Assembly: GCA_038065355.1 (NCBI GenBank)
Contig: JBBTRC010000005.1
Coordinates: 30,530 to 94,529, forward strand
DNA length: 64,000 bases
Source: Patescibacteria group bacterium
GTDB lineage: Bacteria; Patescibacteriota; Minisyncoccia; Phycocordibacterales; UBA918
Reading direction: 5' to 3'
How positions within the stretch are numbered: the stretch's first letter is position 1; every line of letters starts with the position of its first letter. Positions 11,684 to 30,790 of the stretch are shown here, piece by piece. Position numbers and translations under genes: made by a program. A model generated the notes under the pieces. It made no database searches. It was not told where the DNA came from and saw only the letters and a list, made by a program, of their open reading frames with translations.

Positions 11684-11702
11684 ATTGATCGACACCTCAT
11701 CC

Positions 11703-12410: not shown

Positions 12411-12462
12411 GGTTTCGTGCCAGCCCTCTTTCTTCTTGTATTACCGTTGTACTACGAGCGAC

Positions 12463-12495
12463 TTACCCAGCGATGTTTTTTACCCAGCCGAAGGT
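12463..12495 (-). other. Remnant second copy of the 3' end of the FN3-protein gene. Encodes TFGWVKNIAG-stop, differing from the genuine end (12594..12626) only at synonymous positions.
   Basis: Minus-strand translation of 12463..12495 is T F G W V K N I A G *. The real gene ends ...ESTFGWVKNIAG*. Five nucleotide differences are all third-position and synonymous. The frame upstream of the remnant is closed by a stop. Confidence 0.45.
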
Positions 12496-12517
12496 TAAAT
12501 GAAGAAAGGAGCGGCAG

Positions 12518-12571
12518 CGATTATTCTGAATTTACGTCCCAATCTGCTTTTTCCTAAAGCAGATTGCTGGA
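12518..12571. promoter_or_regulatory. Copy 2 of the ~53-nt conserved element, immediately downstream of the FN3-protein stop codon. Hairpin core differs from copy 1 but still pairs (AATCTGCTTT-TTCCT-AAAGCAGATT).
   Basis: Flanks CGATTATTCTGAATTTACGTCCCAAT and ATTGCTGGA match copy 1. Stems covary. Confidence 0.35.
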
Positions 12572-12593
12572 CGAGAAAGCTCCGAGAGCAGAC

Positions 12594-14099: not shown

Positions 14100-14108
14100 A
14101 CCATTGGC

Positions 14109-17100
14109 TTATGGGCCAACCGGCGTAAAGACGTTCTGACCTTGGTGCGGAGCGCTGTTGACGCCAAATGGAACAGCAATGCCCCAGTACACGGTGTCTG
14201 CAACCGGCGGCGTCGTGGTTGTTGGCTTAGACAGATCGACGTTGAGAACTACCGGGGTGGTACTAGAGAGCAAGTTACAGCTGGCACCACAGCCGGAATA
14301 CGTGAAGGTTGAAGTGGCAAACTTCTGCTTTGTCGACGGGATGGTGGAGCTGTAGCCGTCGGTCATGTCGGTACCTTCAACTTCGATATTTATTTCAACG
14401 TTACCTTGGTTTTCAATCGAGGTGGTGGCATTCACCGAGCCGGTGTCTTCCGTTACGGCGACCGAGCCGTAATCTATCGCGCCGTCAATATCAATCGCGC
14501 GCAGTGTATTGAGTTCTTGTCCAATGGATGTTCCAAAATCATAACCACCGCCGGTGTCTTCCACCTCAAGGAACGCAAACCACTCCTCGCCGTCGTAGGC
14601 ACTGCCAGTATCGGTTGGGTCGGCGTGGAAGTAAATATCAGCTTGGCAAGACACGGTGCAACTGTCGCCGGCGCAATCGGTAAATGTACAAGCCGAGCCA
14701 CCGACGCTGTAACAGTTGTTGTTATCGACAGCACAGCTTGCCCCTCCTACGACGCCGCCGCGGTAGAACGTACCGGTAGCGTGAGAGAGGTCAGTGTAGC
14801 CGTTGAGATCCGTTACGGTACCGGTCGCTACGACCGCTGTGGTGGTGCCAGGAAGCAAAGAGATCGCCTCGCCGTTGTTGAGAGTAATGCTGTCAACTAT
14901 CGGGTCAAAGCGAAGGGACATTTTTGCTACTTGCAAGTATGTATCATAGAACGTACCGTTGTCAGTGACGCGGAAACAGAGATTTTCATCAATCACATTG
15001 GATGTTGGCGTGATGACATATTCGAGTTCGGTGTATTCATTTTGGTCAACATCAATGGCACTCGTGGTATTGGAAGGATCTTCGCGCACCTCGCCGGCAG
15101 TGAAGGCGCCTTCGGCATTGACGAGAAGATCGGCAACGCTTGCGCTGTCTGTCACATTATTGGAAGTCTGCATACAGACAGCCGAAGTACCACAGCTGGC
15201 TTGTGGTGGCACCGGAGCGTAGTCTGCTTCATCGACGGCTTCGCAACTCGGCGCGGTATCCTGGGACGCAAATTCAAGCCGAAATTCTTGACCGCCAATT
15301 GCCAGTCCGCTGTTTTCAACGACTACACGTAGGCGCGCCGTGTCGGTCACACTGAAGGTCGCGGCGGTGTTTTGTGCTGCGGCGAAGGATGCTCCTCCAT
15401 CAGCCTGTTCGGCTCCAAAGAGTATGGTTGGTTCGGTCGCGAGGGTCGGTCGTGAGCTAAAGCTGTCAAAGCCTCCTTGATTAAACCAGTAAGTGAAACC
15501 GATACCGCCCGACGTGTACGAGCTGTCAGTCGCCGAGGTGGTCGCGACAAGTGAATGAGAAGCGTCGTAGAGTGATAGGAAGAGTGTATCGTCGGTACCC
15601 CAATCGAGTTCAAACTCATACCAACCGGTAGTGAAAGATACATCGGCGGTCGCGAGTGTGGCGCCAGATGATTCATTTTCAGTTACATCTTCCACGACTG
15701 CGATATGGTCAGTGCCAGGCAACTCAACACAGACCGCGTAGTTGTCGTTTGGCACGTTGGTACCTTGAACGGCAAATTTTGTACATGTCTCGTCGGAAGT
15801 GCCAGCCGTGTCGACGTACTGCCAAAAGCGAATTGTTTCTCCCTGACTGACGGTTTGACCAAATCTGTAAATACCGCCGAGATTCGCTCGACCAGTGGTG
15901 TTGCCGCTGTTGTCGAGACCATAGGTGCCGTCGTAGGCAAACGAGGTGCCTGTGTTGAAAAGACTTGTCTGTCCGCTGTATTCCGAAATATCATCATCTT
16001 CAAAGTCGTCGGCCGCTATAAACACGTCGGTGCTTGAACTGGTAGTGGTAGCGGTTGGGTTGTTGTAATACATGTAGACAGTTGCGGTTTCCTCGGCCGG
16101 TAGTGTCGCAACTTGTACCCACACTTCAGCGATCGTGCTCGCGGTCGTGGAGCCGATCCAGAACGGAAGAGTGGTAGTACCGCTCTCATCGGTAAAGCGA
16201 AGATCGCCAAAATCAGCTTGCATGTCGGAGTCATATTCCACGTACAATTGCACTGCAGCGTTGGTGTAGTTCGTGGCATCAGCGTTTACGACTCGCACTT
16301 GTTTCCGTGCGTTCCAGGCCGCGTCATACCACTCGCTGTCAGGCACTCCCAGTCCGCCGTCGTCATTCCGCCAACGGTAGCCTGTCTGCTGGGTGAGGAG
16401 ACAAGCACTGTCGCTCCAGCGCACCGACCCGCAGTCATCAACTCCGTCGACATCAAAGGCTTCACCGTCGAGGTTACCGGTATGGCTGACAAACGTCCAG
16501 GCGTTGCTGGTTGAACCAGTCATAGTGATGTTCGCTCCACTAATAGCAGTGGTGGTGGCGAAGCGGTTGCCGGTGTGGACCATCGACGCGTTGGCGTTTA
16601 GTGTCGTTGAGGAAAGCGTGAGCAAGGTGCCGCCGTCTACCGCGAGTTCAAAATCTCCGTATGAAAGAGAAGTAATGGCTGGAGTGCCGGATAGTGAAAG
16701 TCCGTTGGCACCAAGATTTCGAAAGATATAACGCTGTGCATTCAGCGTACCACCCGCCACATTGACACTGTAAGTACCACTGCCTTGATTGGTGATGGTG
16801 GTTTCATTTCCACTCTCGCCAACAACTGCCAACGAACCGCTCAAAAGTGTAGTTGTAGCATTCGCTTCGTGTTGCACTGTGACCACTCGCTCGCTACCAA
16901 GAAGACTCACACCATCGAAGTCGGTGGCATAGCTCCAATATTCAGAAGTGGTACCGATAGTGAAGTCGCCATAAATATTCAACGCTCCGTCGACCGCATT
17001 GTGATCTTGAGAGTAGAGCGAGGCGTTCGCCGCGACGGTTGAAGTCGCTCTCGAGTTCCACATGCGAATGTCACTGGCGGCACCGATAGTGAGGCCGTCG

Positions 17101-20100
17101 TACACGTCGCCGCCCGTAGTTTTGGTGTTGAGCGAATAGGCGTTCGCACCATCAAGGGCTAGAGCACTGCCAGTCCAAGTCGTCGCGGCTCCGCCGACAC
17201 TGTTTAAGAACACACCTTCCACTTTTAATGTAGCTCCAGACTGTAAAGTGAAGCTACTCGCGCTCGCCAACGTAAAGTTGTTGGTAGTCGTCGCGGAAGC
17301 CGCCAGCGTGTAGCCCCCGGTCGGTGCACCAATTTGCACGTTGTAGAACGAACTCACGCCTGGATCAATGAATTCCCCACTATCGGAAGAGTTGAACAAC
17401 ACAGTATTTGAAGCGTGAGAGAAGGTGCCGCCACTCGCATCAAAACTGCCGCCGACAGACAGTGTGCCTGATGCCAGCGTGACGTTTCCGTCGGTAATAA
17501 AGACGCTGTCGAGGAAGGTAATATCTTCATCAAGCATGGTGTAAGCGCCTCCGCCAGCGAAGTTGACCGCGTAGAGGTCGGAGCTCGATGCCAAGAGTGT
17601 GGCCGTGGTGGCGTTGATGAGTTTCAAGTCAGCGGTGTTGTGGATGATAGACCCACCAGTATTTGCGAAGTCACCGCCGACAGTGAGACGGCCAGACGGT
17701 AGAGTGATGGTACCGCTTTCGACGGTAAAGACACCGGTCGTGGTGGCGTTGGTGTCGCCCCAGGTGTAGGCGGCGCCGGAAAATGTGACGCCGGCTAGAT
17801 CAGATCCCCCTTCTGTCACAATGCCTGATCCGGTAAAGAGCGCGTGGCCACCATTGGCATCAAAGGTGCCTCCAGTCTGTACCAGCGATCCGGCAAAAGT
17901 AGATGTGCCGATCGGGAACGTGAGTGCACCCGCACTTTTACGCAGATTGCCATCTACGGTGAGCGTGTTGTCCGAAATAACCCAACTTCCCGAACCAGTA
18001 AAATCAAGATGGTGAAAAGAGTGTTCATTCACGTCGATAGTTCGAGCGGCGCCGGTTGTGGTAAACGTCGTCGTGCCATTGCTACTGACAAAATCGGCGT
18101 TGTTACCAAGAATCATACTGCCGCCGACACTGAGAGTTTCTGTACCTTGTCCAGTCCAGAGCGCATCAGCGTGAAGCTCAAGTGTTCCGTCATAGTCGGC
18201 TCCGGCGCCACCGCCAGCCACCGTTACGTTTCCACTCGGCGCAAATTCTTTGGCGTCCCACACAATGAGTTTTCGATTGGCCGGCAAGATGAGTGTGTCG
18301 GTACCGGCATTGACGGCGGTGAATGGAATATCTGCGTCGTCTCCAGAGTCCCATACCGCGAGATCGGCAATGGTAATAGGGTTCACGTTTTCATGGCGCA
18401 CAATCACTCGATTTTCGTAGATATCCAAATCGCCAATGTTTGAGATTGGTTCTTTGGTCACAGTGGCACCCTCTGACGAAGTGCCGCTTATGTACACGAC
18501 AAGTGAGTCGGTGGTACCGTACGAGACATTGGAAATACTGTACGCGCCGGTCGTTGCGTTGCAACTAGCGGTGTACGACGTGATACCGGCCACTGTAAGC
18601 ACGATCACGTTGCTACTGCCGTCGCACACATTTGAAACGGTCGTTCCTTCGTCGCTGTAGACTGCGCCCGCGACCGTGATGAGTGCGGCTGAGTCATCCC
18701 ACGCCACATAACCTGGGTCTCCGCCCGGATCAACGTCATTGGCTTCTCCGTCAATGTCACCGTAGTGATTGGCAAAGCGCCACGCACTGACCGTCGTGCC
18801 GGTGGCGGTGACATTGAATGCACTGCCGACGCCATCGAGTGCAAAGCGGTTTTGTGTGAAGTTCTTGGCTGGGTTATTGGTGATGACCGAGCCGCCGACC
18901 GTTATCGCCGAACCACCGGTTTGCGATACTCCGAAATCCCCGTTTGAAAGTGTAGTCACCTGTGGCAAACCAGTGAAGATGATTCCGTCACTGCCCGTAT
19001 CGCGCACTTCGTAATAGCGAAGCGACGTTGAGGCGGTGCCGCCGATGGTGAGGGCATACGTGCCAGCACCTTGATTTTGTAAGGTCGTTGATGCCGACGA
19101 AACTCCGTAGACTGCGAGCGCGCCGCCGGTGTAGAGCGCGCTAGCTCCAGGGGCAAAGTACACATCAGTTTGGCGCTCGCTACCACTAAGATTAGTACCG
19201 TCAAAATCAGTGCTGTAACTCCAATGATCGGTACCGGTTGATTTTCGGTAAGCTCCCCAAATGTACAGATCACCATTTTGCGCCCCGTGATCTTGCGAGT
19301 AAAGCGACGCAGTGCTTTCTACATCATACGTACCAGCACTCGAGTTCCACATGCGAATTTGTGTGGTGTCGCCAATCGACAAAGTGTCGTAGGAATCGGT
19401 GGTAGTCGCGGTGTTGATACTGTAGTTACCACCGCCATAGAGACGCAAGGTGGCGCCAGTCCAGGTAGTGGCGGCTCCTCCTTCATCATTTACAAAGGTG
19501 CCACCAACCGCCAACACTTGCCCACTACCGGCGGTGAAAGTGTTGGCATTTAGCAGTCTCCAGGCGACGGTCGCAGTGGCGTGCTCGGTTATGGTAATGT
19601 CACCAGTCGTGTTTATGACGACATTGCCAAAACTACTCGTACCGGCGGCAATTATTTGCGTACCCGCGCCGTCAAATGTGAGCGTGCCATTGTTGCTCGT
19701 GAACACACCGTTATTTTCGTAATTGCCAGCCACCGTGAAGCTTGCAGTATCGCTCGCGCCGAGAGTACCATTGCTTTCGATGAAAACATCTCCATTCACA
19801 TCAAGCGCCGGATCACTGGTCGAGAGGTTAAAAGTCGTAGCGGCCGCACCGCCGATAGAAAGGTCATTGTCGACGATGATGCCAAGACCAGTGGCGGTGT
19901 AGGTAGGTGAACCAACAGCAGCGTTTAGTTCTAAATTATAGTACCGAGTTGAAAGCACGTTAGCCCCAGCGCCACTGTAGCGAATAGTGCTGGTGTCTTC
20001 TAAGAGTGTGCCGTTCTCAATAAATACTGTGCCCGTACCGGCTAAATCCCAAGCAGTACCACCGGCGTCGAGGAAGTGAGCGGGAGCGATAGTAAGTCGC

Positions 20101-23100
20101 CCACTTATGGTCGTGGTACTTGTAAATACCGGCGTAGTGGTGCCAATATCTATGCCATCACCGAGTTGTAAGTTGTAGAAAGTCCAAGGGCTCGTGCCGC
20201 CGAGAGTGTTGGTGTTGGCAATCGTCGTCGTACCAGCGCCAAAGGAAAGTATGCCGTTACCGCTTAATGAGCCGTTTTGAAGCGTAATGTCACCAGTACC
20301 GGTCACCGTGCCGGCAGTAAGCGTGAGGTCGCCATTGGTCACAATGTCTGCCCCCACATTCCAACTGCCCCCACTTCCGTTGAATTCAAGCTCGTTGAAT
20401 GCAATCGTACTGCTCGCGGTGATGCTCTTGCCGGAACTGGTAGCGTTCATATGCACCGTCGTACTGGCCGCGTCAAAGGTGGCGCCGTTTTCAAGCACGA
20501 GGCGGCCGCCAATAGTGAGGGTGCTGGTGCTATAGGCGTTCATAGTCGCATTCTCACCTAGGTACAATGTGCCGTCATAACTATTGGCGGCCGCGTTTGC
20601 TGCCAAAGTAACAACCCCATTCGGAGTAAACGTAGATGACGCAAAGACAAAAAGTTCAGTTCCAGCCAGCGTAGTGAGTGTGTTGGGGTTTGAAGTAGTG
20701 GCGGCCAAATAGCGCAGGTCGGTGTCGTTTGAAAAATCATACGTAGCCAAGTTGGCAATGGTAAGTGCTTCGGTATCTTCGTTCCGCACTATCACGCGGT
20801 TGACGTAAATATCCAAGTCGGTAATATCAGCGGTCGGTGTGCGGGTCACTACGCTACCCCGCTCATCACCAGAGGCGTCATCAAGATAGATGGTGAGCGT
20901 CGGGTCACCCACTATCACAATTCCCCCGATGCTATAGGTGCCGTCGACGTTGCTACAACTGCCAGTGTAGGATGCTCCGTTTTCGACTACCACCCGCACA
21001 ACCTGATCGACTCCGTCACAAGTGCCACCGACAAGTGGAGTGGTGCCCGCGTCGCTGTAAACCGTTCCGGCAACCGTAATGGCAAGCGAACTGTCATCAA
21101 AACGGACCGAACCAGGGTCGCCAGTGTCGTTGTCAAAATTTTCTCCATACAAATTGCCGCTTCCCTCTCTAAACCACCAGAATGAGGTTGGGGCGCCGTC
21201 AGTTTGGGCTACGTTAGTAGCAGAAATTGCCGTCGTAGTGGCAAAGTTCACATTGAAAATCTGCTTTGCCGGATTGGCATTAATGGTAGTTGAGGAGAGT
21301 GTGATCGCGGTGCCGCCACCTGCCGCGACCGTGTAGGAACCATCACGTAAATTCGACACATAGGTACCTCCAAGTAGAGATAGGCCAGAGAGACCGAGGT
21401 CAGTAAATTCGTAATATTGTGCCGTGGTGGTTCCGCCTGTCACCGCTACCGTGTAAGTACCAGTACTTTGATTTCTGATTGTGGTTGATGCGGTACTAGT
21501 ACCTGTGATGGAGAGCGTGCTATCGGTGAATGACGCAGTCGCATCAGAGGCAAAGCGTACGTCGATCGCTCGCTCGCTTCCACCTGCGAGCGAGGCGCCA
21601 TCAAAGTCGGTGGCGTAACTCCAGTGCTCAGTGCCGCTTGTCCGCGTGTAATCACCGAAAATGTAGAGGTCGCCGTCTACCGCTCCGTGATCTTGCGAGT
21701 AGAGTGCGCCGCCGCTTTGGGTAGAGTAGGTCGTTGCCGACGAGTACCACATCGCCACCTGTGTACTCGTGCCGACGGAAATGGTGTGATAGGCATCGCC
21801 GTTATCAACTTTAGAGTTGAGACTGTAGGAACCTGATCGGAGCGCGAGCGTCGCACCAGTCCAAGTAGTCGATGCGCCGCCGACGTTGTTGGTAAAAGTT
21901 GCTCCGACAGAAAGAGTTTGGCTCGGTGCGAGGGTAAAATCACTGGCGTTTGTTAAAGCAAAGCTGTTGGTAGTAGTCGCAGGCGCAGCTATCGTCCAGC
22001 CACCCGTCATACTATTGAAAGTAACGTTGTAGAGAGCAGAGTTACCAAAATCAACGATCTCGCCCGCATCGGTTGAATTAAAGAGGATGGTTCCAGAACC
22101 CGGCAACACCGAGGCGGCGTTTTGGTACGAGCCGCCAAGCGCGAGGGTGGCGCTTGGCAAAGAAAGCGTGCCTTGTGCGATGAAAAGGTCACCAGTCATG
22201 GTGGCAGTGGTGTCACTAAACGACCACGAACCAGAGCCATCAAATTGGACAGAATGATACGTCGAGCCGCCGGTTGTGAGAACTTCCGCAACGCTACTAT
22301 AAAACAAGAGAGTGCCGGTGCCGCCAGCAAAACTGCCGCCACCGTCAATGAGGGTACCGCCAATAGCAAACACGCCGGCTGGAAAGTTCAACGTCCCTTG
22401 CAAGACTCGAACGTCGTTCGTGCTGGTAGCGTTGATATCAAGTACAGTCCAACTGCCACCACCGTTGAAGGTGAGGTTGTTGGCCACATTGGTGAAGGTG
22501 CCGCCAGCAAAGGTGAGTGTCTCGGCGGCGTTTGAAGTGAAGTACAGGGTTCCGTTATTGTGTGCAAAGGTGCCGCTTGTTACTAGGAACGATCCGCCGA
22601 CGGTGGTCGTGGCAGTCGGAAGCGTAACCGTACCGGCCGTTACTTGTACATCGTTGCTCGCGTGGAGCGTCGGTTCTGTAAATGACCAACTACCGCCACT
22701 GCCATTGAAGGTAAGATCGTAGAATGCATCGCCGGCAGTGGTAATCGCGTGCGTAGAACTCGTGGCGGCAAACCTCACTTCGCCCGAGCGAGAAACGAAA
22801 TTGTTTTGGTTGTTCCATCGTCCATACACGGTGATATCGAAGTTGCTGGTTGAGGCGTCGAGCGTGTCGTTGGCACCAATTGTGATCGACTCGGCTGTTA
22901 CTGTGCCGGCCAGAGTGACTATTTTTGAAGTACCATCGACCACTACGTGACCGACATTCTGTTTCACTACATTCTGATCATTCCAAGTTGATGCTGTATT
23001 GCCGTCAAAAGTGGTGGTACCGATTCCCGTCCAAAAACCGCTAACGCCTGTGACTACGTTGCCTGCAACTGTTATCGCAGTCGTGCCACGTGCGAGGGTG

Positions 23101-26100
23101 CCTCGATTGACCGATAGGTTGCCATCAACATCAAGCGCGGTAAGCGGTGTCCAGGCACCACTACCGGTCGTCGTACCAAACGTGAGATTCGCGAAGGTGG
23201 TGTTAACGGCTCCAGTGTTGTCAATTGTTTCTGATGTGCTGGTGGCCGAAAACACAACCGTCGATCCGGTTAGTGTCGTCGTGGCGTTGTTGTCCCATGA
23301 ACCATTCACCTCGTGTGTGTACGAACCGGCGACAAAGATACCGTTATTTTCAAAATCATGAGTGACAAAGCGGCCGCCCGGTGTGTAGTACGTATCGGCA
23401 AGGATGTGGAGTTCCACATCTGTACAACCGCCACCGGCACACAATGAAAGGGTTGACCCGGAGAGGTCAAAGAAAACATCTTCGGTGTTTGTGAAATCGT
23501 AGAGACCGATATCGGCATCTGTGAGCGGAGTGGTAGTAGCATCGTTTGAACCGAGCGTGAGATGCCGCTCGTAGAGTACCATGCCATCAATATCACCTTG
23601 ACCATCGTACCTGGTCACGCCAACCGCCTCGTTTGCATCTGGCGCCGAGGTGACAAACACACTAACCACGTCGCCGGGGAAAGCGGTGACATTACTTATG
23701 CTCCAAGTGCCGCCGCCGACAGTGCCGGTCTTACCTGTCTGCAACACACCATTGACTGCAACCGCTACTGTGCCGCTCGTCACCGCTGTCGCTTGGTCAT
23801 ACTCGGCGATGGTGCCTGAAACGGTAATACCGCCCGCCCAGTCAATTTTCCAATCTGAAATGCTGGGGCAATTGCCTGACCCGTCGCAAGCAAGTTCAGC
23901 GTACGGACGAATGACATTGTAAGTATTGGTATTGAGATTACTAAGATCAAACGGCCCGGTTGTGGTACCGGCGACGTTACCCGGGAGATCTGCGTCCGGA
24001 ATAAAAGCCCAACTACCAGTCGCGGTGTAGTACTCTAGATGGTAACTGGCTACACTCGTACCTGGCGTGGCGTCATTCCACGAAAATGAGTCCCAGTAGG
24101 GGCCAGTCCCATCATTGAAATCTAGAGCCGGACTCACTACCGTCGTACCCTCACGACCGGGGTTGCGCGGAGCGAGAGAATAAGGATGGCCGAAAGGCGA
24201 AGTGTCAACTGACGCGTTTGTTTCAAGAGCTGAGAGGCTTGACCAGGTCGTGCCGTTCCAGGTGCTCGCTTGGTACGTATCAGATGGATCGTCAAAGAAG
24301 ACGCCGAGAATGGTGTTGTCGCCCGCTCGCGCCAACTGCAAAGTTGCGTTGTCACCGAGCGTGTCAACATTGCTGATCGACGACCAGGTGCTGGCGTTGT
24401 AAGTGAAGTAGCCAACTGCCGTAGTCGTACTGATGGCAGTCATGATGTAGCCGTTTCTGCCAGTGGTGTCTTCATACACGCAATCAAAACCCGGGTCTGT
24501 TTTGGCATTTCCATTGGCATCAGTCACTAACTCGGTTTGTCCGGCCCACGCCGAACCCGTCCAACGTACCACCCCCGCCGCCGTATCTTCATCCTGGTAA
24601 CAAAGAACCATCGCGTCACTGCCCACATCCCTCGACAACCGGGCCCACTCAAGATCATCACCAATGGCTTCTGTGGCGGCGGTCCCCCAAGTCGTTCCGT
24701 TCCAACTGTTCCAACGAAAACGAGCCGGATTGCCGTCTGAGGTCACAATGAGCGCTTGACCGCCGCTCTCTTCATACATAACCGCCATACCCTCATGAGC
24801 AGTGTCAACGATACTTCCCTGCGTCGTGGCATTACCCCAGCTACTGCCGCTCCAGACTTGAGCCTCATACTGGTTGCCAGCAGCATCCCGGGCCAGGAAG
24901 ACTATTTCGTCCGAAGTTGGGTCGGCCGCCAGCTGTAACCATTCACAATTGCTGGTGCTGTTGAGGTTAATCGTGCCACCGCTCGTCCATCCGGACCCGT
25001 TCCATATATAGTAGCTTGGGTCTGCGTCACCGTCACAGTACGCTACCAGGGCATCACCAGAGTTCGTTTCGTAGGCGATGTCAAAACCTTGCGCATTTAT
25101 GTTGCCGACGTTAGTTGTTAGTTCAAGCAAGTTAGCCCATTCGCCCGTCGCAAAAACTTGCACGTTCACGTCGGCGTCAGACCCGGCAGTGGCGGCCACA
25201 TATTCTTCCCTGGTGGCGCCTGCCTCTACCACTACCCTGCGGAGAGGCGCGCCGATATCAAGAAGGGTGCCTTCACTGCCCCAAAGAGAGCCGTCCCATT
25301 GCCGATAACGAGGCTGTGTCTCCGTACCCTCTCCATATACCAACATCGCCTCAGTGGCTGTGGTTGCCACCGTCACGGTATCGTTCGAAAGCGCAATAGT
25401 TCCTGAGAGAATATTAGAATCAAATTGCTCTTCTGTAGTTTGAAACCAGGTCGAAACGTCCGTGCCCGGTACCATAGTAAAACTTCTCGCTTCAGTCCAA
25501 AATGAGTAGGCATCGTCACCAGTCGTGTCTTTGGCCCGTACCCGCCACCAGTACGTTGTCGAGCCTGATAGTGCGTCTGCCGGCTGAATCGTAAATTGAA
25601 TCGTCTCGCCAGAATTAAATGGATCGGTATCCAGACCGGTGTCGATATTGGTAAATCCAGCAGCCGTGTCGGAGGTCCGGGTGGTCGAGGAAGTAAAATC
25701 GGGCGTAAGCGACCATTGAAGTTGATACGTGAGACTATCGTTTTGCGGATCGGCGGTTGTAAATTCAAATGTTGGTGTGGTGGTACCCACTTGCTCGTTG
25801 GCAAATAATTTTGTAATAGTCGGTGTCTCAACTCGATAGCCCCAATTGATGGTCCAGTCCTGGAGCGAAGGCGAACCACCTGAATTTGTAAACGTGGCGA
25901 CGATCCGCAGTACGTTGTACGTGTCGGTATCGAGCGTCAAGAGAGAGACCGGTGAGGTGTCAAAGCCGCTGCTGTTGCCGGTGAGCGCTGAATCCGGCAC
26001 CAACGACCAGGTATCGTCGGTATCCAAATATTCAATCTGGTATTTAATATCGCCGGCGGTTTCGGTGTCAGAGAAAACAAAGTTGTCCCAGGCGGTGCCC

Positions 26101-29100
26101 AAAGCACCATCGTCAAAATCAATCGCTCCACTTATCATGGTGCCAGTCGTCGAACCACTTATGAGAGATACTTGGTCACTGCCTGTCTGTACGCCGCTTA
26201 AGGCATTGGTATCAAATTGTTCGTCTTCGGTTTGAAACCAAGCGGAAGCGGTCAGTGCAGTATCGACGGTTACACTGTAAGTGGTTGACCAATTGCCCCA
26301 GTCTGCGGACCCATCGGGATCTTCAGCGCGCACTCGCCAGTAATAGGTGGTTCCATTTGTGAGTGACGAAGGAGGAATGACTCTGATTAAGTTACCTTGA
26401 ATAAACGGCGCCTTATCGGAGATGAGCACCTGGTTTTCGAAATAGTCATCTTCACTGGCGTTTTGTGTGTCGAGGTCATGAACTGGTGAAGAAAAATCGT
26501 AGTTGTTATCAATTTCAATTTCGTAATGTATCTTGTCACTCTCTGCATCAGTGGCGTAAAACTCAAACCACGGTGTGGTCGATGCGGTTTTTTCATTGTC
26601 AAACGGTGTTTCGAGCACCAGAGTACCTGGCGCGTCATTCGTGTAAATCTGCGGATAGTTTCCGTACGTTGAAAATGCCGAACCATCTCCTTCAACCAAC
26701 CGGAAACAATAATTGGTGCCAGGAACGGCGTTGTTATGTTGAAGTACGAAGTCCCATTCACCAAAGTCGCCGACTGTTATTTGGTTGGGTGTACTGGATG
26801 CGTAGCCATTTTCCTCGTATGTTTCTGCTACGGTGGACGATGCAAGAAGTTGCGACGTGAGCGTTCCGCTATCAGACACGCTGGTGTTGTTGTACCCACG
26901 CCAGAGTGCCGTCGTAGAAGAAATATCCCCCACATCACGCCAACCGCCAGCGGCGCTACAGGTAGCCGCCGCGGCGTATTGCAGTGTAAACGTCGAACCA
27001 GCACTTGAAGTCGCGTTTGAAACACTGGTGTTTAGACGCAAGCGAATACGCTCACCTTCCTTGACTGGCGTTGAAACAGCCGTTACTGGTTCGTTTTCAG
27101 CTAGATCACTAGCCCCACTTGGCCAAGGATCAGTGGGAACTTGCGCATTGTTGTTTACATACCACCGAAATGCTTGTTCTGTATAGACAGGATCAGTACC
27201 TTGCCGCTTACCAAAGACCACAGTGAGATAAGGCGGCAAGTGGCTGACTGTACTGAAGCTGTTGACATTAACCGAGTGCGTGTGGGCACCGCTCGCACCG
27301 GCGGTACCGCCTGGCTGGTTTCCGGGTGAATTGGCGCTCGGAGCACTCGAAGTGATACCGGTCACATCTGCATTTGTGTGGGTGTTTTGTCCTCCAGTTG
27401 CACTGAAGGTTGTTGATGCTTTGAGGAAACGCTGGTTGAACGGATCGCCGGAAAGCGAAGATATATCCAGCCAGCTGCCATCAACTTCTTCAGTCCACAT
27501 AGCGATGAGTCCGTTTGGCGGTGTGGTCGTCGCGTCGAGTTTACCGAGAATGACCTCGATGTAGCGCGGTTCGGTACTCGTTGAAGCTGTCGAACCGCCA
27601 ACTGTGTGCGTGTGCGTACTAAGCGCACCGGTTGCGGCGCCGCCACCACGGTTGCGGGTGCCAGTGCCGCCAGCTGTGCCGGTTGTACCACTAATTGCGT
27701 GCGTGTGAGTATTCCCGCCGCCGGTTGTACCGGGAGTATTTCCACCGTAGATGTAGTAACCGTCCTGTGCGCTGTATCTTGTCCAGCCGCTCGGAACGGT
27801 TGCGTCAAAGATACCAATGGCGCCGGTCGGAATGTCGGTCGGTTCACCAGCCGCGTCGGTGTACTGAATGACGCGCAACTCGCGATACGCCGGCAAGTTG
27901 GACGCGCTCGCGATAGTCGGCGAGTAGGTATGCGTATGAGCGACCGGAGCAATTGTGCCGGAACCGGATTCGGTGCTCGCAAGCGTGGTGGCCAAAACCG
28001 AGCCCACCGCCGTGTGCGTGTGCGTTGTCGCTCCGCCAGTCGTATTGTAGGTGGAGCTACCGTAGGCGAAGCGCTGGTAAAAAGTCCCAGACCCGCAAGA
28101 AAGACACGTCCAGCCAGTTGGAATCGCCGAACCGTTATCCCAAAATAGGATCATGTTGCCGACGGCATCGGAAGCAATTTGCCACTGCCGGTGCTCTAGG
28201 AACGAAGCGGCGGTCGGCTCCGCTGAAGTCGCTGTTGATGTTCCGCTGACAACAGTCGGTGACTGATTATCGTTTATGAGTTCGGCTGGTCCGAGGTTGT
28301 AAAGATAAGGGGACAAGTCGGGTGCATCAAAATCATACGAGACCGTTTCAGCACCCGCACCGAGAATCGAAATGTCCCAGGTCAGTATTTTTTCGTTGCC
28401 GGTTTGCGTGATGGTCGCATCGGTGTTAAATACGTCAAACTCTGCCGGAATACGTTCGGTCAGTGTACCGGTAAAAGAGCGGTTCGTTTCCACCGTGAGG
28501 TTCATCGGGTAAGGAGCGGGTGGGTAAATGCGAGTTGGACCATCGCGCAAAATTGCCAGTGGTTGATCATCAGCCACTAAAAATGTATCGGAAGTGAAGG
28601 CTAGTACATTGCCGTTTTCGTCGAGACGTTCCAAGTACAATTCGTAGGTGCCGGGAAGCGTGGTCGGTACTGCGGCACTGAAGTCAGGCACGTCTATCAC
28701 GTTGTTACCGTCACAGAAACCAGACTCGGTTACGGCAGGAACGGTAATGATGCCGGCCGGATCAGTCACGAACAAGTTGAAACTAGCTTGGCAGATAGTG
28801 TGTCCGTTTGGTGAGAGTGCTCCGATAGAGATCTCTGCTGTCTCGCCGGTTTGATACTCGCTTTGACTTGGGTTCATGCTTAAAATTCCCCACGCAAAGC
28901 TAAAGGTGTCGGTAAACACTACGCCGCCCTCATTCAGTGAGAGTTCGACTGCGTAGTTGCCTGGGCGAAGTTTTGCCAGATCCTCGTCTTCAAATTCAAC
29001 AGTGATGAGTCCCTCTTTTGTGGTAGTGATGCGAGGAGAAATACCAATCGGACCTTCGCCCTGGTGTCTAACAAGCACCGACTCTACCGTGACCACGTTG

Positions 29101-30704
29101 CCTCCAAGCAAGCTTCGCCAGCCGCGGATCAAAGCGTTACGTTGTTCGTTATACCGTAGGTTAAATACCGGACGTTCAAATCTGCCAAAGTTGAGTTGTT
29201 CACTGACAAGCGTGGTATAGATGGGAGCTTTAAGATGCGTGAGGGCGGCCGGAAGTCCGCGGGCTTTCAGATCTTCCTTGGTAATGACCCGGGTGTGAAG
29301 TTCGAGCCAGACTGCATCAAGAAACATTCCATCTAAAAACTCACTTTCACCATGGTAGCGAAGCACCACAGTGGTACTTGCGAGTGTTTGCACATTCTTT
29401 ACAACCGGTAAGGCGAACAGGAAGTAGCCGCCATTCTGCGCATTTGATACTTCGTCCTCAAGCAAGATGCCGCCGACTGATTGAAGCTGGCTGCCGTCGC
29501 CATAGAGTACTTCAATGTACGGGGCCGTCCCCGACGCAGGAGATTCAAGCTGCGCCGCAAACGATAACCTAAGCTGCATGCTGTCGATAAATTGACCGGG
29601 TTGAAGCGGCGCGGTGTCAAAACTTGAAAGCGTAATTTCATGGACTGATTGGCCGCTCTGTGTGAGTGGAGTTTCCGGTGCTTCGTCGAGAATGGTACTC
29701 GTCGTTGCAATGCTCGATGTCGCCAGGTTCGCCGTGGTTGACGAGTTGGATGACGCACCGTTTGAGTCAGTAAGCAAAGCGGGCAAAGATGAGCTTGCCT
29801 TCTCTGTGGTAGTAGTTGGTGTCGTTTCTGTTTCCGTAATCGCTATTTCCGTTTCTGTCGTGCTGTCAATCTCGGTCAGAGTGGAATCGACAACAGCCGT
29901 GCTCGCTTCCGATTCTTCGGACGTTATTGGACTGGTGCTCGTCAGTGTAAGCTCCGCCAGCGGAAACAAACCAAAAGCTTGTTCAAACACGCCCCATACG
30001 GTGCGCGCCGTTGTTCCGCTCTCCAATCGCGACACTTCTTCAATAGGAACCGACTCGGCGGGGGGAGGAGTCACCACCTCATCAACCGGTTCTGGTGCTA
30101 CCTCTGGAACGTCGACCGGTGTCGCCGCCTCTTCGCTCGCTTCGCTTTCCTCATTCGCAGTGTCGGTTGGGACTGTCTCGCTGTCAGCCTCGCTCGCCGG
30201 CAAGGATTCTTGTGAAGCTTGTTCATTGGAAGAAGCGGCCGTAGTTGATGACACAGTCGGTGATACGGACGAAGAAGATGAGCTTCCGTGTAATGCGTCA
30301 ATCTTAATTAGAGATGTCGAGCTGGCGTGAGATCTGGTAAAAGAATTTGGCAATATCAGTGCGCCTTGTGGCACGTAGGCAGAGTTTATTGCCGAGAATT
30401 CCTGGTACAAGGCATCGTCGGCCAGATCCTGTGAGAAAACATTTTCAACGCCCGCCCAGTCTGCTGTTTCAGCCTCAACGGGATAGATGTTGACCGTTTG
30501 GATTGTGCCAAAATTCAAAACTTGGTTGCGCTTCGACTCAGCGGTTTCTGAAAGCGAGACATTCACCACAATAAGGAGAAGGAGCGCGACCATTGCCTGC
30601 CACAGCAGTCGACCACTAACAAAACCCCGCATCTCACTTTCAGGCGCTTTAAATAACAGTTTTATGAAATTATGTCTTGTGTTGTGACAGCTTTTTTTCT
30701 TCAC
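14109..30704 (-). CDS. Giant multidomain surface protein, 5531 aa. Order: N-terminal TM anchor; acidic Ser/Thr/Glu-rich spacer; triple phage tail-collar-like HTHT repeats; FN3-like modules; predicted beta-propeller with six W-x-G-S-x-W repeats; long beta-helix-like Gly/Thr-rich repeats including three ~770-aa super-repeats; DUF2341-like and LamG/ConA-like lectin domains; Cys-rich region; conserved C-terminal YWGIAVPFG...QGQNVF motif.
   Basis: Uninterrupted 16.6 kb ORF. Domain calls from motifs read in the translation: TGGATTHTHT...LPAYRELRVIQY x3; DLRFTDESGTTTLPFWIG...VWVQV...YMYYNN; three WTGATL(A/R)L... units at residues ~2947, 3748 and 4509. True start may be the downstream Met at ~30632 (MRGFVSGRLLWQAMVALLLLIVV). 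Confidence 0.85.
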   Translation of the reverse strand: MKKKSCHNTRHNFIKLLFKAPESEMRGFVSGRLLWQAMVALLLLIVVNVSLSETAESKRNQVLNFGTIQTVNIYPVEAETADWAGVENVFSQDLADDALYQEFSAINSAYVPQGALILPNSFTRSHASSTSLIKIDALHGSSSSSSVSPTVSSTTAASSNEQASQESLPASEADSETVPTDTANEESEASEEAATPVDVPEVAPEPVDEVVTPPPAESVPIEEVSRLESGTTARTVWGVFEQAFGLFPLAELTLTSTSPITSEESEASTAVVDSTLTEIDSTTETEIAITETETTPTTTTEKASSSLPALLTDSNGASSNSSTTANLATSSIATTSTILDEAPETPLTQSGQSVHEITLSSFDTAPLQPGQFIDSMQLRLSFAAQLESPASGTAPYIEVLYGDGSQLQSVGGILLEDEVSNAQNGGYFLFALPVVKNVQTLASTTVVLRYHGESEFLDGMFLDAVWLELHTRVITKEDLKARGLPAALTHLKAPIYTTLVSEQLNFGRFERPVFNLRYNEQRNALIRGWRSLLGGNVVTVESVLVRHQGEGPIGISPRITTTKEGLITVEFEDEDLAKLRPGNYAVELSLNEGGVVFTDTFSFAWGILSMNPSQSEYQTGETAEISIGALSPNGHTICQASFNLFVTDPAGIITVPAVTESGFCDGNNVIDVPDFSAAVPTTLPGTYELYLERLDENGNVLAFTSDTFLVADDQPLAILRDGPTRIYPPAPYPMNLTVETNRSFTGTLTERIPAEFDVFNTDATITQTGNEKILTWDISILGAGAETVSYDFDAPDLSPYLYNLGPAELINDNQSPTVVSGTSTATSAEPTAASFLEHRQWQIASDAVGNMILFWDNGSAIPTGWTCLSCGSGTFYQRFAYGSSTYNTTGGATTHTHTAVGSVLATTLASTESGSGTIAPVAHTHTYSPTIASASNLPAYRELRVIQYTDAAGEPTDIPTGAIGIFDATVPSGWTRYSAQDGYYIYGGNTPGTTGGGNTHTHAISGTTGTAGGTGTRNRGGGAATGALSTHTHTVGGSTASTSTEPRYIEVILGKLDATTTPPNGLIAMWTEEVDGSWLDISSLSGDPFNQRFLKASTTFSATGGQNTHTNADVTGITSSAPSANSPGNQPGGTAGASGAHTHSVNVNSFSTVSHLPPYLTVVFGKRQGTDPVYTEQAFRWYVNNNAQVPTDPWPSGASDLAENEPVTAVSTPVKEGERIRLRLNTSVSNATSSAGSTFTLQYAAAATCSAAGGWRDVGDISSTTALWRGYNNTSVSDSGTLTSQLLASSTVAETYEENGYASSTPNQITVGDFGEWDFVLQHNNAVPGTNYCFRLVEGDGSAFSTYGNYPQIYTNDAPGTLVLETPFDNEKTASTTPWFEFYATDAESDKIHYEIEIDNNYDFSSPVHDLDTQNASEDDYFENQVLISDKAPFIQGNLIRVIPPSSLTNGTTYYWRVRAEDPDGSADWGNWSTTYSVTVDTALTASAWFQTEDEQFDTNALSGVQTGSDQVSLISGSTTGTMISGAIDFDDGALGTAWDNFVFSDTETAGDIKYQIEYLDTDDTWSLVPDSALTGNSSGFDTSPVSLLTLDTDTYNVLRIVATFTNSGGSPSLQDWTINWGYRVETPTITKLFANEQVGTTTPTFEFTTADPQNDSLTYQLQWSLTPDFTSSTTRTSDTAAGFTNIDTGLDTDPFNSGETIQFTIQPADALSGSTTYWWRVRAKDTTGDDAYSFWTEARSFTMVPGTDVSTWFQTTEEQFDSNILSGTIALSNDTVTVATTATEAMLVYGEGTETQPRYRQWDGSLWGSEGTLLDIGAPLRRVVVEAGATREEYVAATAGSDADVNVQVFATGEWANLLELTTNVGNINAQGFDIAYETNSGDALVAYCDGDADPSYYIWNGSGWTSGGTINLNSTSNCEWLQLAADPTSDEIVFLARDAAGNQYEAQVWSGSSWGNATTQGSIVDTAHEGMAVMYEESGGQALIVTSDGNPARFRWNSWNGTTWGTAATEAIGDDLEWARLSRDVGSDAMVLCYQDEDTAAGVVRWTGSAWAGQTELVTDANGNAKTDPGFDCVYEDTTGRNGYIMTAISTTTAVGYFTYNASTWSSISNVDTLGDNATLQLARAGDNTILGVFFDDPSDTYQASTWNGTTWSSLSALETNASVDTSPFGHPYSLAPRNPGREGTTVVSPALDFNDGTGPYWDSFSWNDATPGTSVASYHLEYYTATGSWAFIPDADLPGNVAGTTTGPFDLSNLNTNTYNVIRPYAELACDGSGNCPSISDWKIDWAGGITVSGTIAEYDQATAVTSGTVAVAVNGVLQTGKTGTVGGGTWSISNVTAFPGDVVSVFVTSAPDANEAVGVTRYDGQGDIDGMVLYERHLTLGSNDATTTPLTDADIGLYDFTNTEDVFFDLSGSTLSLCAGGGCTDVELHILADTYYTPGGRFVTHDFENNGIFVAGSYTHEVNGSWDNNATTTLTGSTVVFSATSTSETIDNTGAVNTTFANLTFGTTTGSGAWTPLTALDVDGNLSVNRGTLARGTTAITVAGNVVTGVSGFWTGIGTTTFDGNTASTWNDQNVVKQNVGHVVVDGTSKIVTLAGTVTAESITIGANDTLDASTSNFDITVYGRWNNQNNFVSRSGEVRFAATSSTHAITTAGDAFYDLTFNGSGGSWSFTEPTLHASNDVQVTAGTVTLPTATTTVGGSFLVTSGTFAHNNGTLYFTSNAAETLTFAGGTFTNVANNLTFNGGGSWTVLDINATSTNDVRVLQGTLNFPAGVFAIGGTLIDGGGSFAGGTGTLLFYSSVAEVLTTGGSTYHSVQFDGSGSWSFSDTTATMTGDLFIAQGTLSLPSATLALGGSYQNAASVLPGSGTILFNSTDAGEIVDFGNSALYNVTFNSMTGGWTIAAPATTTNSFALTNASDFTLAPSQTLSVGATFTNNVGGASTTWTGATLALRSGSYSLNSKVDNGDAYHTISVGTSTQVAMWYSSATTYSTQSGGALYSQDHGAVDGDLYIFGDYTRTSGTEHWSYATDFDGASLAGGSERAIDVRFASDATASFTDSTLSITGTSTASTTIRNQSTGTYTVAVTGGTTTAQYYEFTDLGLSGLSLLGGTYVSNLRDGSYTVAAGGGTAITLSSTTINANPAKQIFNVNFATTTAISATNVAQTDGAPTSFWWFREGSGNLYGENFDNDTGDPGSVRFDDSSLAITVAGTVYSDAGTTPLVGGTCDGVDQVVRVVVENGASYTGSCSNVDGTYSIGGIVIVGDPTLTIYLDDASGDERGSVVTRTPTADITDLDIYVNRVIVRNEDTEALTIANLATYDFSNDTDLRYLAATTSNPNTLTTLAGTELFVFASSTFTPNGVVTLAANAAANSYDGTLYLGENATMNAYSTSTLTIGGRLVLENGATFDAASTTVHMNATSSGKSITASSTIAFNELEFNGSGGSWNVGADIVTNGDLTLTAGTVTGTGDITLQNGSLSGNGILSFGAGTTTIANTNTLGGTSPWTFYNLQLGDGIDIGTTTPVFTSTTTISGRLTIAPAHFLDAGGTAWDLAGTGTVFIENGTLLEDTSTIRYSGAGANVLSTRYYNLELNAAVGSPTYTATGLGIIVDNDLSIGGAAATTFNLSTSDPALDVNGDVFIESNGTLGASDTASFTVAGNYENNGVFTSNNGTLTFDGAGTQIIAAGTSSFGNVVINTTGDITITEHATATVAWRLLNANTFTAGSGQVLAVGGTFVNDEGGAATTWTGATLRLYGGGNYSINTATTTDSYDTLSIGDTTQIRMWNSSAGTYDVESTASLYSQDHGAQNGDLYIWGAYRKSTGTDHWSYSTDFDGTNLSGSERQTDVYFAPGASALYTGGALAVYGVSSASTTLQNQGAGTYALTIGGTASTSLRYYEVRDTGSDGIIFTGLPQVTTLSNGDFGVSQTGGSAITVGGSVITNNPAKNFTQNRFALDGVGSAFNVTATGTTVSAWRFANHYGDIDGEANDVDPGGDPGYVAWDDSAALITVAGAVYSDEGTTVSNVCDGSSNVIVLTVAGITSYTASCNATTGAYSISNVSYGTTDSLVVYISGTSSEGATVTKEPISNIGDLDIYENRVIVRHENVNPITIADLAVWDSGDDADIPFTAVNAGTDTLILPANRKLIVWDAKEFAPSGNVTVAGGGAGADYDGTLELHADALWTGQGTETLSVGGSMILGNNADFVSSNGTTTFTTTGAARTIDVNEHSFHHLDFTGSGSWVISDNTLTVDGNLRKSAGALTFPIGTSTFAGSLVQTGGTFDANGGHALFTGSGIVTEGGSDLAGVTFSGAAYTWGDTNATTTGVFTVESGTITLPSGRLTVGGDFANTGGSIIHNTADLKLINATTATLLASSSDLYAVNFAGGGAYTMLDEDITFLDSVFITDGNVTLASGTLSVGGSFDASGGTFSHASNTVLFNSSDSGEFIDPGVSSFYNVQIGAPTGGYTLAASATTTNNFTLASASSFTLQSGATLKVEGVFLNSVGGAATTWTGSALALDGANAYSLNTKTTGGDVYDGLTIGAASDIRMWNSRATSTVAANASLYSQDHNAVDGALNIYGDFTIGTTSEYWSYATDFDGVSLLGSERVVTVQHEANATTTLLSGSLAVVGESGNETTITNQGSGTYSVNVAGGTLNAQRYIFRNLGANGLSLSGTPAITSLSYGDFELAVDGGTLLTLSSTTLNANASMVHTGNRFATTTAISGANITMTGSTSNAWTFVSHTGNLDGEAFDVDGVDDCGSVRWSDSACLLTQQTGYRWRNDDGGLGVPDSEWYDAAWNARKQVRVVNADATNYTNAAVQLYVEYDSDMQADFGDLRFTDESGTTTLPFWIGSTTASTIAEVWVQVATLPAEETATVYMYYNNPTATTTSSSTDVFIAADDFEDDDISEYSGQTSLFNTGTSFAYDGTYGLDNSGNTTGRANLGGIYRFGQTVSQGETIRFWQYVDTAGTSDETCTKFAVQGTNVPNDNYAVCVELPGTDHIAVVEDVTENESSGATLATADVSFTTGWYEFELDWGTDDTLFLSLYDASHSLVATTSATDSSYTSGGIGFTYWFNQGGFDSFSSRPTLATEPTILFGAEQADGGASFAAAQNTAATFSVTDTARLRVVVENSGLAIGGQEFRLEFASQDTAPSCEAVDEADYAPVPPQASCGTSAVCMQTSNNVTDSASVADLLVNAEGAFTAGEVREDPSNTTSAIDVDQNEYTELEYVITPTSNVIDENLCFRVTDNGTFYDTYLQVAKMSLRFDPIVDSITLNNGEAISLLPGTTTAVVATGTVTDLNGYTDLSHATGTFYRGGVVGGASCAVDNNNCYSVGGSACTFTDCAGDSCTVSCQADIYFHADPTDTGSAYDGEEWFAFLEVEDTGGGYDFGTSIGQELNTLRAIDIDGAIDYGSVAVTEDTGSVNATTSIENQGNVEINIEVEGTDMTDGYSSTIPSTKQKFATSTFTYSGCGASCNLLSSTTPVVLNVDLSKPTTTTPPVADTVYWGIAVPFGVNSAPHQGQNVFTPVGP

Positions 30705-30716: not shown

Positions 30717-30790
30717 ACCCGTTTCAAAAGTTAGAAAACGGGCTAATTATAAGTATACCGCGCAAAGCTTTTCTCTGTGCGCGGTATTCT
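30717..30790 (-). terminator. Two hairpins (cccgttt...aaacggg and taccgcgca...tgcgcggta) between the cassette B cohesin-like gene and the giant gene. Probable terminator/attenuator region; a T-run is adjacent on the plus strand only.
   Basis: Inverted repeats read directly from the sequence. Weak U-tract on the minus strand, so the termination role is uncertain. Confidence 0.35.

Follow-up and report, generated by a model that had tools for sequence, protein, structure and literature searches.

The 64,000-nucleotide stretch of DNA examined here, referred to below as the window, comes from an ultra-small groundwater bacterium of the Patescibacteria (assembly GCA_038065355.1, contig JBBTRC010000005.1, positions 30,530 to 94,529) and carries a giant gene on its minus strand. 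Exactly one open reading frame (ORF) fills the gene. It is 16.6 kb long, opens with a GTG start codon and encodes 5531 amino acids (aa) plus a stop, with no internal stop. From its N-terminus, the predicted product comprises a hydrophobic helix, an acidic stalk, a conserved region of unassigned fold, a module of three histidine-rich units (the HTHT module), Ig/FN3-like domains flanking a predicted beta-propeller, three long super-repeats, and a C-terminal module with a DUF2341 domain and a cysteine knot (Table 1). Its family, widespread and uncharacterised, consists of giant proteins that probably serve in attachment, a kind already known in candidate phyla radiation (CPR) bacteria. Domain order, family, synteny and the exchange of one internal cassette are documented directly, and the folds of three modules were obtained by prediction. 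A first-pass annotation, made from the sequence alone, had described a single uninterrupted 16.6-kb frame; seven collinear orthologues and independent contigs at both gene ends agree with an intact frame, and only the strand, which is minus, needs to be put right in that description.

The ORF is confirmed as real and intact. The other five frames over the same region carry 2.5-6% stop codons, so that a run of 5531 stop-free codons has a chance probability of about 1e-73. The GTG start is favoured because the extension ahead of M25 is conserved in three orthologues (P0069, P0078 and P0142) as 'KKK..HNT....F[KR]A'; one gene caller picked M25 as the start (P0068). Repeats inside the gene reach at most 77% identity over 57 nt at the DNA level, and the protein super-repeats are 27-50% identical to one another, so repeat collapse during assembly is not expected. 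Contigs of three other data sets from Hainich well H41 (0.2 µm fraction) match window positions 2594-18441 at 99.96-100%, and residues 25-2157 are found, apart from 3 substitutions, on a further separate contig. Independent same-organism contigs cover both gene ends; the middle third (aa ~2158-4088), which has no such copy, is collinear with the seven full-length orthologues with at most 2% gaps. The same-organism short-read contigs stop inside the gene, at aa ~4088 (window 18441) and aa ~2157 (window ~24233), where DNA repeats are weak. Misassembly by repeat collapse was considered and rejected on the diverged repeats and the collinear orthologues, as was a prophage or phage-fibre origin on the cellular context and the absence of phage homology.

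Seven full-length orthologues are available from other metagenomic sources. They measure 5515-6510 aa and are collinear with the giant protein at 42-54% identity; five align end-to-end, often as one BLAST segment, and two (P0229 and P0232) align in several collinear pieces. BLAST pairs residues 894-5623 of P0219 with giant residues 798-5529 at 54% identity, and residues 463-5647 of P0215 with giant residues 372-5530 at 46%. Identity in the orthologue alignment is ~45-50% and flat across the folded modules, with at most 2% gaps from aa ~600 to the end. The exception is the propeller (35% identity, 15% gaps); the stalk is the least conserved part of the protein (16% identity, 28% gaps). A genome scan found the C-terminal module encoded in at least 151 species-representative genomes. 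At 56 loci the contig reaches a full 10 kb upstream of that module, and at 52 of them no stop codon interrupts the frame over this distance, which makes the ORFs ~4090 aa or longer. In this family, one giant ORF is the rule.

All close homologues and all 80 orthologous loci come from Patescibacteria metagenome-assembled genomes, labelled Paceibacterota, Parcubacteria, Kaiserbacteria, Nomurabacteria, Minisyncoccia and similar; the homologue-bearing genomes include the closed 0.99-Mb chromosome CP060229.1. Closed relatives of ~1 Mb suggest that this organism also has a small genome, in which the giant gene would take up 16.6 kb, and the end-to-end conservation of the gene in many Paceibacteria implies strong selection. 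The gene is interrupted in two relatives. In one (L005, 1-13849, JGI Ga0535658_0000208) it is naturally divided among three ORFs (2874, 1959 and 1282 aa), owing to two diverged copies of an inserted ~388-aa leader that consists of a signal peptide and an ice-binding-like DUF3494 domain (PF11999). One insert sits in super-repeat 1 and the other at the matching point of super-repeat 3; in the numbering of the giant protein these are aa 3068/3074 and 4629/4635. Because this gene encodes three secreted proteins, a single continuous polypeptide is usual in the family, not obligatory. In the other relative (L004, 1-12952, GCA_041389025.1) the gene is in pieces, with ORFs of 2998, 2498, 60 and 983 aa that have frameshifted tails and resume mid-domain without signal peptides, a state that reflects either indels from sequencing or a pseudogene. 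Small paralogues with the C-terminal module were also considered and set aside, most being contig-end fragments of giant genes. The family, defined by its collinear architecture, conserved cluster, HTHT module and cassette slot, appears to be undescribed in the literature searched.

The N-terminus consists of a basic region followed by the only hydrophobic segment found in the whole protein by a Kyte-Doolittle scan, a layout that is the same in all orthologues. An N-terminal transmembrane (TM) anchor had been proposed, in keeping with this one segment (aa 27-56), which may act as either a signal-anchor or a Sec signal peptide. The stalk has the acidic, Ser/Thr/Glu-rich composition described for it (36% S+T, 17% D+E, 1.8% K+R) and is ~220 aa long (130-350), shorter than the ~300 aa claimed. 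The conserved region that follows it (aa 350-830) is common to many 1800-aa CPR proteins and matches no Pfam family. Cysteines occur almost entirely in pairs across the whole protein. Beyond aa 4126 the sequence contains no LPxTG-like motif, and the C-terminus has no hydrophobic segment or TM helix. RTX-type GGxGxD repeats were not found near the C-terminus, where there is a single chance match at aa 4165 and no RTX Pfam match, and cohesin or dockerin modules are detected by Pfam in neighbouring genes only. Sortase, RTX, prepilin and dockerin targeting were each rejected for want of the corresponding motifs. NCBIfam contains no family for any segment of the protein, and PDB sequence searches with the protein halves and with C-terminal, blade and HTHT-unit profiles returned nothing significant.

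Among the elements of the family, the HTHT module holds the most promise of novelty. Three phage tail-collar-like HTHT modules had been predicted, and three tandem units (A-C) are indeed present, mutually alignable and with six HxH motifs in total. Of the 12 His positions in these motifs, 11 are shared by 32 or more of the 35 homologues, and unit A has a conserved CxxC pair. The collar assignment itself fails: Pfam Collar (PF07484) gives no match at E<=1 over the whole protein and none at E<=10 for 30 single units. AlphaFold2 modelling from a 35-sequence alignment returns a predicted local distance difference test score (pLDDT) of 87.9 and a predicted TM-score (pTM) of 0.84, with the same strand pattern in each unit, indicating that the module forms one compact body. 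The commonest sub-threshold Pfam match is PF03335, 'Phage tail fibre repeat', seen for 6 of the 30 units with a best E of 0.037. No significant hidden Markov model (HMM) or structural match to HxH phage fibre tips (T4 gp37-like, PF03335) was obtained for the module, and no phage relatives of the giant protein were found in PHROGs or by tblastn against 50,697 phage genomes. The likeness of the HTHT units to phage fibres is weak and confined to the motif.

An exhaustive HMMER search found the HTHT module in 2,832 cluster representatives at 50% identity, 523 of them at E<=1e-30. The proteins concerned range from ~325 aa, nearly the module alone, to 7,246 aa, belong to CPR bacteria and Chloroflexota, and often carry the module in duplicate; Pfam, NCBIfam and PHROGs do not recognise it. 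The phage HxH tips (T4 gp37, PDB 2XGF; the cyanophage A-1(L) fibre, 8KEC; the Pa223 fibre, 9NXK) resemble it in their conserved HxH motifs and Gly/Thr-rich beta-structure, but they are built from three chains, whereas the HTHT module has three repeats in one chain and a cellular context. A tentative idea, with perhaps a one-in-four standing in our judgement, is that HTHT represents an undescribed domain family, a single-chain pseudo-trimer whose three repeats, with two HxH motifs apiece, would form two six-His metal sites and so mimic the three-chain, metal-stapled receptor-binding tip of phage fibres. Such a threefold arrangement would be in line with the three equivalent repeats and the pTM of the predicted model. 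If true, the HTHT module together with the swappable propeller cassette could constitute a general partner-recognition device of ultra-small episymbiotic bacteria. The all-beta domain that adjoins the module (aa 1176-1360) is paralogous to aa 5100-5270, as co-occurring matches indicate; P0150 and P0174, for example, match both.

Downstream of this domain, the FN3-like modules of the first-pass annotation are upheld as two Ig/FN3-like stretches. Both are matched by the Pfam family Ig_Rha78A_N (PF25788; E 1.2e-9, 38.8 bits against a cut-off of 27.4), the best match being aa 1638-1744. Self-comparison in 250-aa chunks pairs residues 1364-1504 with 1625-1768 and residues 1522-1621 with 2188-2289. 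A domain scan had been named as the check on the proposed modules, and it matched both DUF2341 and the Ig/FN3-like domains. The sequence motifs that had been quoted are all present in the translation: YYWRVRAEDPDG at ~1454, TYWWRVRAKDTTG at ~1716, DLRFTDESGTTTLPFWIG...VWVQV...YMYYNN at 4833-4880, and HTHT at 895-1143.

A beta-propeller had been suggested from six W-x-G-S-x-W repeats. The propeller is supported and the number rises to eight, each repeat being ~49 aa long with the pattern W-x-G-x-x-W, six strict and two degenerate. The AlphaFold2 model has pLDDT values of 83-95 and four strands per repeat. When it is searched with Foldseek (3Di plus amino acids), the top 24 matches are all propeller lectins; PHL/PLL match best (E 4e-11 to 4e-9, target TM ~0.65), followed by BP39L, SapL1 and FleA, with AAL and RSL lower down. 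Sequence comparison with PDB lectins, by phmmer and by hmmsearch with a blade profile, finds no match, identities are 13-15%, and Pfam has no family for the propeller. The earlier lectin label thus holds as a fold-level resemblance only, and not in sequence; sugar binding is putative. Each fucose site of PHL/PLL lies between blades and uses two Trp residues (PMC5584973), and a two-Trp motif is conserved in each blade of the modelled propeller. Like the PLL/PHL lectins, the propeller has four-stranded blades with one W-rich motif each. These lectin propellers are seven- or six-bladed, free and soluble, in contrast to the eight blades modelled here, which are embedded in a 5531-aa protein and have no HMM-level relationship to them.

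The propeller fills a slot bounded by Ig/FN3-like domain b on one side and the second ~100-aa domain on the other, and the content of this slot differs among species. Five of the seven full-length orthologues have a ~410-aa propeller there, and P0229 and P0232 have different domains of ~210-230 aa. Both flanks were located by a heuristic mapping at 27 further loci, so the counts are approximate: 17 hold a propeller, 3 the P0229 type, 4 a ~300-aa segment without W-motifs and 1 a clear P0232 type, with 1 ambiguous P0232-like and 1 other ambiguous case. Pfam has no family for the alternative cassettes, including the P0229 and P0232 domains. At least three to four unrelated cassettes are documented in the slot across species (window 24180-25352; loci L006-L085). 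Exchange of this kind is expected of a specificity module, which makes the propeller position a candidate specificity slot.

Three super-repeats of ~770 aa with a beta-helix-like character had been described. They are present, at ~920, ~800 and ~760 aa instead, and are rich in Thr (14-17%), Gly (13%) and Asn (6-7%). A right-handed parallel beta-helix is confidently modelled for aa ~2650-2979, with pLDDT 60-96 and about one short strand per 8 residues, and the model resembles solved beta-helices. The beta-helix assignment is extended to super-repeats 2 and 3 by paralogy; aa 2291-2641 gave no clear model. Each copy is ~48% identical to its orthologous counterpart, equal to or above its similarity to its paralogues, so the triplication is old. 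No segment matches a Pfam or NCBIfam enzyme family (pectate lyase, Beta_helix, GH, PL) at E<=1.

The C-terminal module begins with the DUF2341 domain (PF10102), which scores 67.9-68.7 bits against a cut-off of 23.4, as the first-pass annotation had anticipated, and which is also matched in 23 of 27 homologues. Proteins with DUF2341 have been proposed as pilus-tip adhesins (PMC4858521). The LamG/ConA-like domain said to follow could not be confirmed. Laminin_G_3 (PF13385) has no Pfam match in the giant protein or the 27 homologues, and hhalign of aa 4907-5095 against genuine Laminin_G_3 domains gives a probability of 7-8% (P 0.005; controls 0.06-0.34). The weak alignment is collinear over the whole profile and matches the hallmark strands, a targeted hmmsearch gives 14.7 bits to one genuine domain of this family, and P0066 has Laminin_G_3 directly after DUF2341. 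On this sequence evidence, a ConA/LamG-like domain is plausible but unproven.

The predicted Cys-rich region and conserved C-terminal motif are both kept in the alignment, as an invariant 6-Cys knot and a terminal motif (Table 1). This C-terminal domain recurs at the ends of unrelated CPR proteins (P0134, P0148, P0153 and P0156) and in the product of a neighbouring gene, p624, which has an N-terminal TM helix. Residues 382-614 of p624 are homologous to giant residues 5321-5526 (33% identity, E 1e-20) and end in a similar YWGIxVP...GxNTF motif. The domain common to the two proteins may serve in assembly or anchoring.

Table 1. Modules of the giant protein and genes of its cluster, with window coordinates
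Feature	Residues (aa)	Window position	Strand	Basis or remark
Whole ORF plus stop codon	1-5531	14109..30704	-	GTG start; ORF listing and translation
Basic N-region, then single hydrophobic helix (aa ~27-56)	1-60	30525..30704	-	Kyte-Doolittle scan
Acidic Ser/Thr/Glu/Pro-rich low-complexity stalk, poorly conserved	130-350	29655..30317	-	composition
Conserved N-terminal domain region, no assigned fold	350-830	28215..29657	-	36% identity among orthologues
HTHT module, three tandem ~105-aa units (848-950, 957-1058, 1063-1168), two HxH each	848-1168	27201..28163	-	
Conserved ~185-aa all-beta domain	1176-1360	26625..27179	-	50% identity among orthologues
Ig/FN3-like domain a, ~100-aa domain a, Ig/FN3-like domain b	1361-1775	25380..26624	-	Pfam and internal repeats
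Predicted eight-bladed beta-propeller, eight W-x-G-x-x-W repeats, lectin-like	1785-2175	24180..25352	-	AlphaFold2, Foldseek
~100-aa domain b, paralogue of aa 1522-1621	2185-2290	23835..24152	-	40% identity
Super-repeat 1, including modelled right-handed beta-helix (aa ~2650-2979)	2290-3210	21075..23837	-	
Super-repeat 2	3210-4010	18675..21077	-	42-50% identity to parts of super-repeats 1 and 3; 48% to orthologous copies
Super-repeat 3	4010-4771	16392..18677	-	self-comparison, orthologue alignment
DUF2341 (PF10102)	4831-4906	15987..16214	-	Pfam bit score (see text)
Candidate ConA/LamG-like domain	4907-5095	15420..15986	-	hhalign
C-terminal domain, invariant 6-Cys knot (5324-5353), terminal YWG[IL]xVP...H/YxGxNxF	5321-5531	14112..14744	-	alignment
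Downstream FN3 protein		12594-14099	-	Pfam
Downstream ABC ATPase		10211-11533	-	Pfam
Downstream MacB/FtsX permease		8967-10190	-	Pfam
Downstream p624		7015-8889	-	
Downstream p319		5965-6924	-	
Downstream dockerin protein		4845-5978	-	Pfam
Upstream cohesin protein, signal peptide and C-terminal TM helix		30818-32356	-	Pfam, topology
Upstream HSP20		32382-32855	-	Pfam
Upstream dockerin protein		32919-34814	-	Pfam

The window is cellular DNA, with genes for BipA/TypA, DinB, a sigma-70 factor, HSP20, queuosine salvage and tRNA-Ser. The giant gene lies within a ~30-kb co-directional cluster (window 4845-34814) in the order dockerin protein, HSP20, cohesin protein, giant protein, FN3 protein, ABC ATPase, MacB/FtsX permease, p624, p319 and dockerin protein; the dockerin proteins carry signal peptides. 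An identical order is found at another locus, L087, where the orthologue is 46% identical; across the two loci, the p624 and p319 positions hold ~610-620-aa and ~311-319-aa proteins. Part of the order is found at L001, L004 and L005.

The giant protein is probably a secreted cell-surface fibre of a Paceibacteria-type bacterium, anchored at its N-terminus and most likely serving as an adhesin. A surface location is supported by the single N-terminal hydrophobic helix, the paired cysteines and the Ser/Thr-rich stalk. An adhesive role is supported by the lectin-like propeller, DUF2341, the exchange of cassettes, the surface gene cluster, and nearby genes for a sortase and for SpaA-like, GH18 and M23 proteins. 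That the protein lies at the surface, how it is oriented, that it binds glycans and that it acts in attachment are all inferred. The suggestion that the protein is an attachment organelle fits the context and the literature as far as surface attachment goes, and attachment to a host or prey is an extrapolation. Giant (>4000 aa) DUF2341/FhaB proteins of Patescibacteria have likewise been interpreted as adhesins (PMC11809585), and CPR bacteria commonly have surface proteins in which lectin, pectin-lyase, FN3 and propeller domains occur (PMC5220378).

In such a fibre, the basic N-terminus and hydrophobic helix would direct the protein to the Sec pathway and hold it in the membrane, unless the signal is cleaved. 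The variable, disordered stalk would cross the cell wall and lead into a conserved extracellular array made up of the HTHT module, Ig/FN3-like spacers, propeller slot, super-repeats and the DUF2341/ConA-like/Cys-knot module. The Ig-like spacers and beta-helix super-repeats would provide reach, as rods tens of nanometres long. Recognition would fall to several binding-type modules, namely HTHT, the propeller cassette and the C-terminal DUF2341/ConA-like part, whose targets may be glycans or other structures on the surface of a partner cell or a substrate.

Several points weigh against this adhesin interpretation. Uniform conservation, strict synteny and what looks like one copy in each genome would be more usual for a core component of the envelope than for a host-specific adhesin that evolves fast. 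The C-terminal domain shared with p624 could be a cell-proximal anchor instead. The split gene of L005 shows that a single continuous fibre is not obligatory, and the adhesin role is a prediction from sequence and models.

A core structural component of the envelope is accordingly the main rival, one that we consider unlikely though deserving of weight, given the uniform conservation, strict synteny, shared C-terminal domain and cohesin/dockerin neighbours. The protein could then be a surface-layer-like coat, a spacer or a cell-cell scaffold, with the cohesin/dockerin proteins and the shared C-terminal domain building a lattice and the MacB-type transporter assisting. An identity of 45-50% over ~5000 aa with almost no indels would suit such a component, as would a gene order kept in relatives at 46% identity, the C-terminal module in at least 151 genomes and its recurrence in p624, and a cluster that combines a membrane-anchored cohesin protein with two dockerin proteins. 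However, no S-layer/SLH-type family is matched in Pfam or NCBIfam, the giant protein has no cohesin or dockerin domain of its own, and the species-swapped, lectin-like propeller slot points to ligand recognition.

A giant glycan-degrading or cell-wall-attacking enzyme, with a catalytic beta-helix (lyase, hydrolase or tailspike-like) and lectin-type modules acting as carbohydrate-binding modules, is improbable. The predicted beta-helix fold, the carbohydrate-binding-type modules and the nearby GH18, CAP and M23 peptidase genes are compatible with it, and giant genes of predatory bacteria have been tied to cell-wall degradation (bioRxiv 10.1101/2023.11.21.568195), but no catalytic motif was identified and, as described above, no enzyme family is matched. 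More improbable still is a contact-dependent toxin-delivery exoprotein of the FhaB/CdiA type, to which the giant size and beta-helix content lend themselves and whose FhaB-type domains occur in other giant Patescibacteria proteins (PMC11809585). No FhaB, two-partner secretion or toxin family is matched in Pfam or NCBIfam, libraries in which FhaB as such (COG3210) has no entry. The C-terminus, instead of being polymorphic, is 45-50% conserved across species and present in a neighbouring protein, the next gene encodes a conserved FN3 protein, no immunity-like gene follows, and no variable C-terminal toxin/immunity pair was seen in the 80 orthologous loci. The notion of an artefact, be it a repeat array put together wrongly, a pseudogene or the tail-fibre gene of a prophage, can call on the contig breaks at aa ~2157 and ~4088 and on the frameshifted L004 and is effectively refuted by the diverged repeats, the negligible odds of such an ORF, the seven collinear orthologues, the 52 of 56 open loci, the BipA, DinB and sigma factor context and the lack of phage matches.

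Among the known systems closest to this probable adhesin are the giant proteins of PMC11809585, which are also patescibacterial, carry DUF2341, are predicted to be extracellular and are thought to act in adhesion; at >5000 aa and with DUF2341, the giant protein falls within that class of patescibacterial proteins >4000 aa long. Those proteins were reported to have no full-length homologues, and rapid domain reshuffling was suggested for them, in contrast to the present family, whose members in at least seven species stay collinear over ~5000 aa, which is syntenic and in which exchange occurs mainly at one slot. Autotransporter beta-helix passengers, such as Bordetella Vag8 (PDB 7AKV), differ in that the giant protein has no beta-barrel translocator, is anchored N-terminally and matches no Pfam beta-helix family; CPR bacteria are not expected to have an outer membrane. 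The protein lacks any LPxTG motif or C-terminal TM helix, has a different domain set and shows no detectable sequence homology when set beside the giant Gram-positive adhesins. SraP-type serine-rich adhesins combine a Sec signal, a Ser-rich stalk and a lectin module. The Apilactobacillus adhesins Giant1-5 (PMC12863079) share with the giant protein a Ser/Thr stalk, a lectin-type region, a repetitive rod, a length of thousands of residues and a Sec signal.

How Patescibacteria/CPR cells recognise and hold their partners is largely obscure outside the Saccharibacteria. In Saccharibacteria, type IV pili are implicated in partner attachment. The giant gene does not represent a new kind of system, since CPR bacteria are known to have both giant DUF2341 proteins and surface proteins of the lectin/beta-helix/FN3/propeller type. 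The present analysis yields a map of the domains, confident models of two modules, a candidate specificity slot, the HTHT family and a conserved ~30-kb cluster, and these modules and the cluster offer handles for binding assays, metaproteomics and cryo-electron tomography.

Several further features of the locus merit description. The 113-nt gap between the cohesin and giant genes contains a 10-bp perfect inverted repeat, ATACCGCGCA...TGCGCGGTAT (30755-30787), without a clear T-run, which could be a weak terminator or a regulatory hairpin. Two paralogous secreted proteins, p385 (3399-4556) and p384 (36482-37636), lie one on each side of the cluster, are 61% identical and both end in '...Y.aTLTY[VI]ATP.F'. 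Other paralogue pairs across the cluster are cohesin512/p584 (38%) and dockerin377/dockerin631 (41%), and together the flanking pairs suggest an ancient duplication of accessory genes.

Outside the cluster, a sortase gene adjoins the gene of a 1381-aa protein with SpaA/prealbumin-like and SdrD-B-like domains (window 42804-47580), which is probably a sortase-dependent pilin or wall-anchored protein. GH18 (chitinase-like), CAP/SCP and M23 peptidase/peptidoglycan-binding genes at window 39952-42731 and 50129-51139 encode possible cell-wall-active secreted proteins. The G+C content of window 58001-62000 is 0.37-0.46, against ~0.51 elsewhere, and a tRNA-Ser(GGA) gene adjoins at 61888-61975; this stretch may be an integrated or foreign segment.

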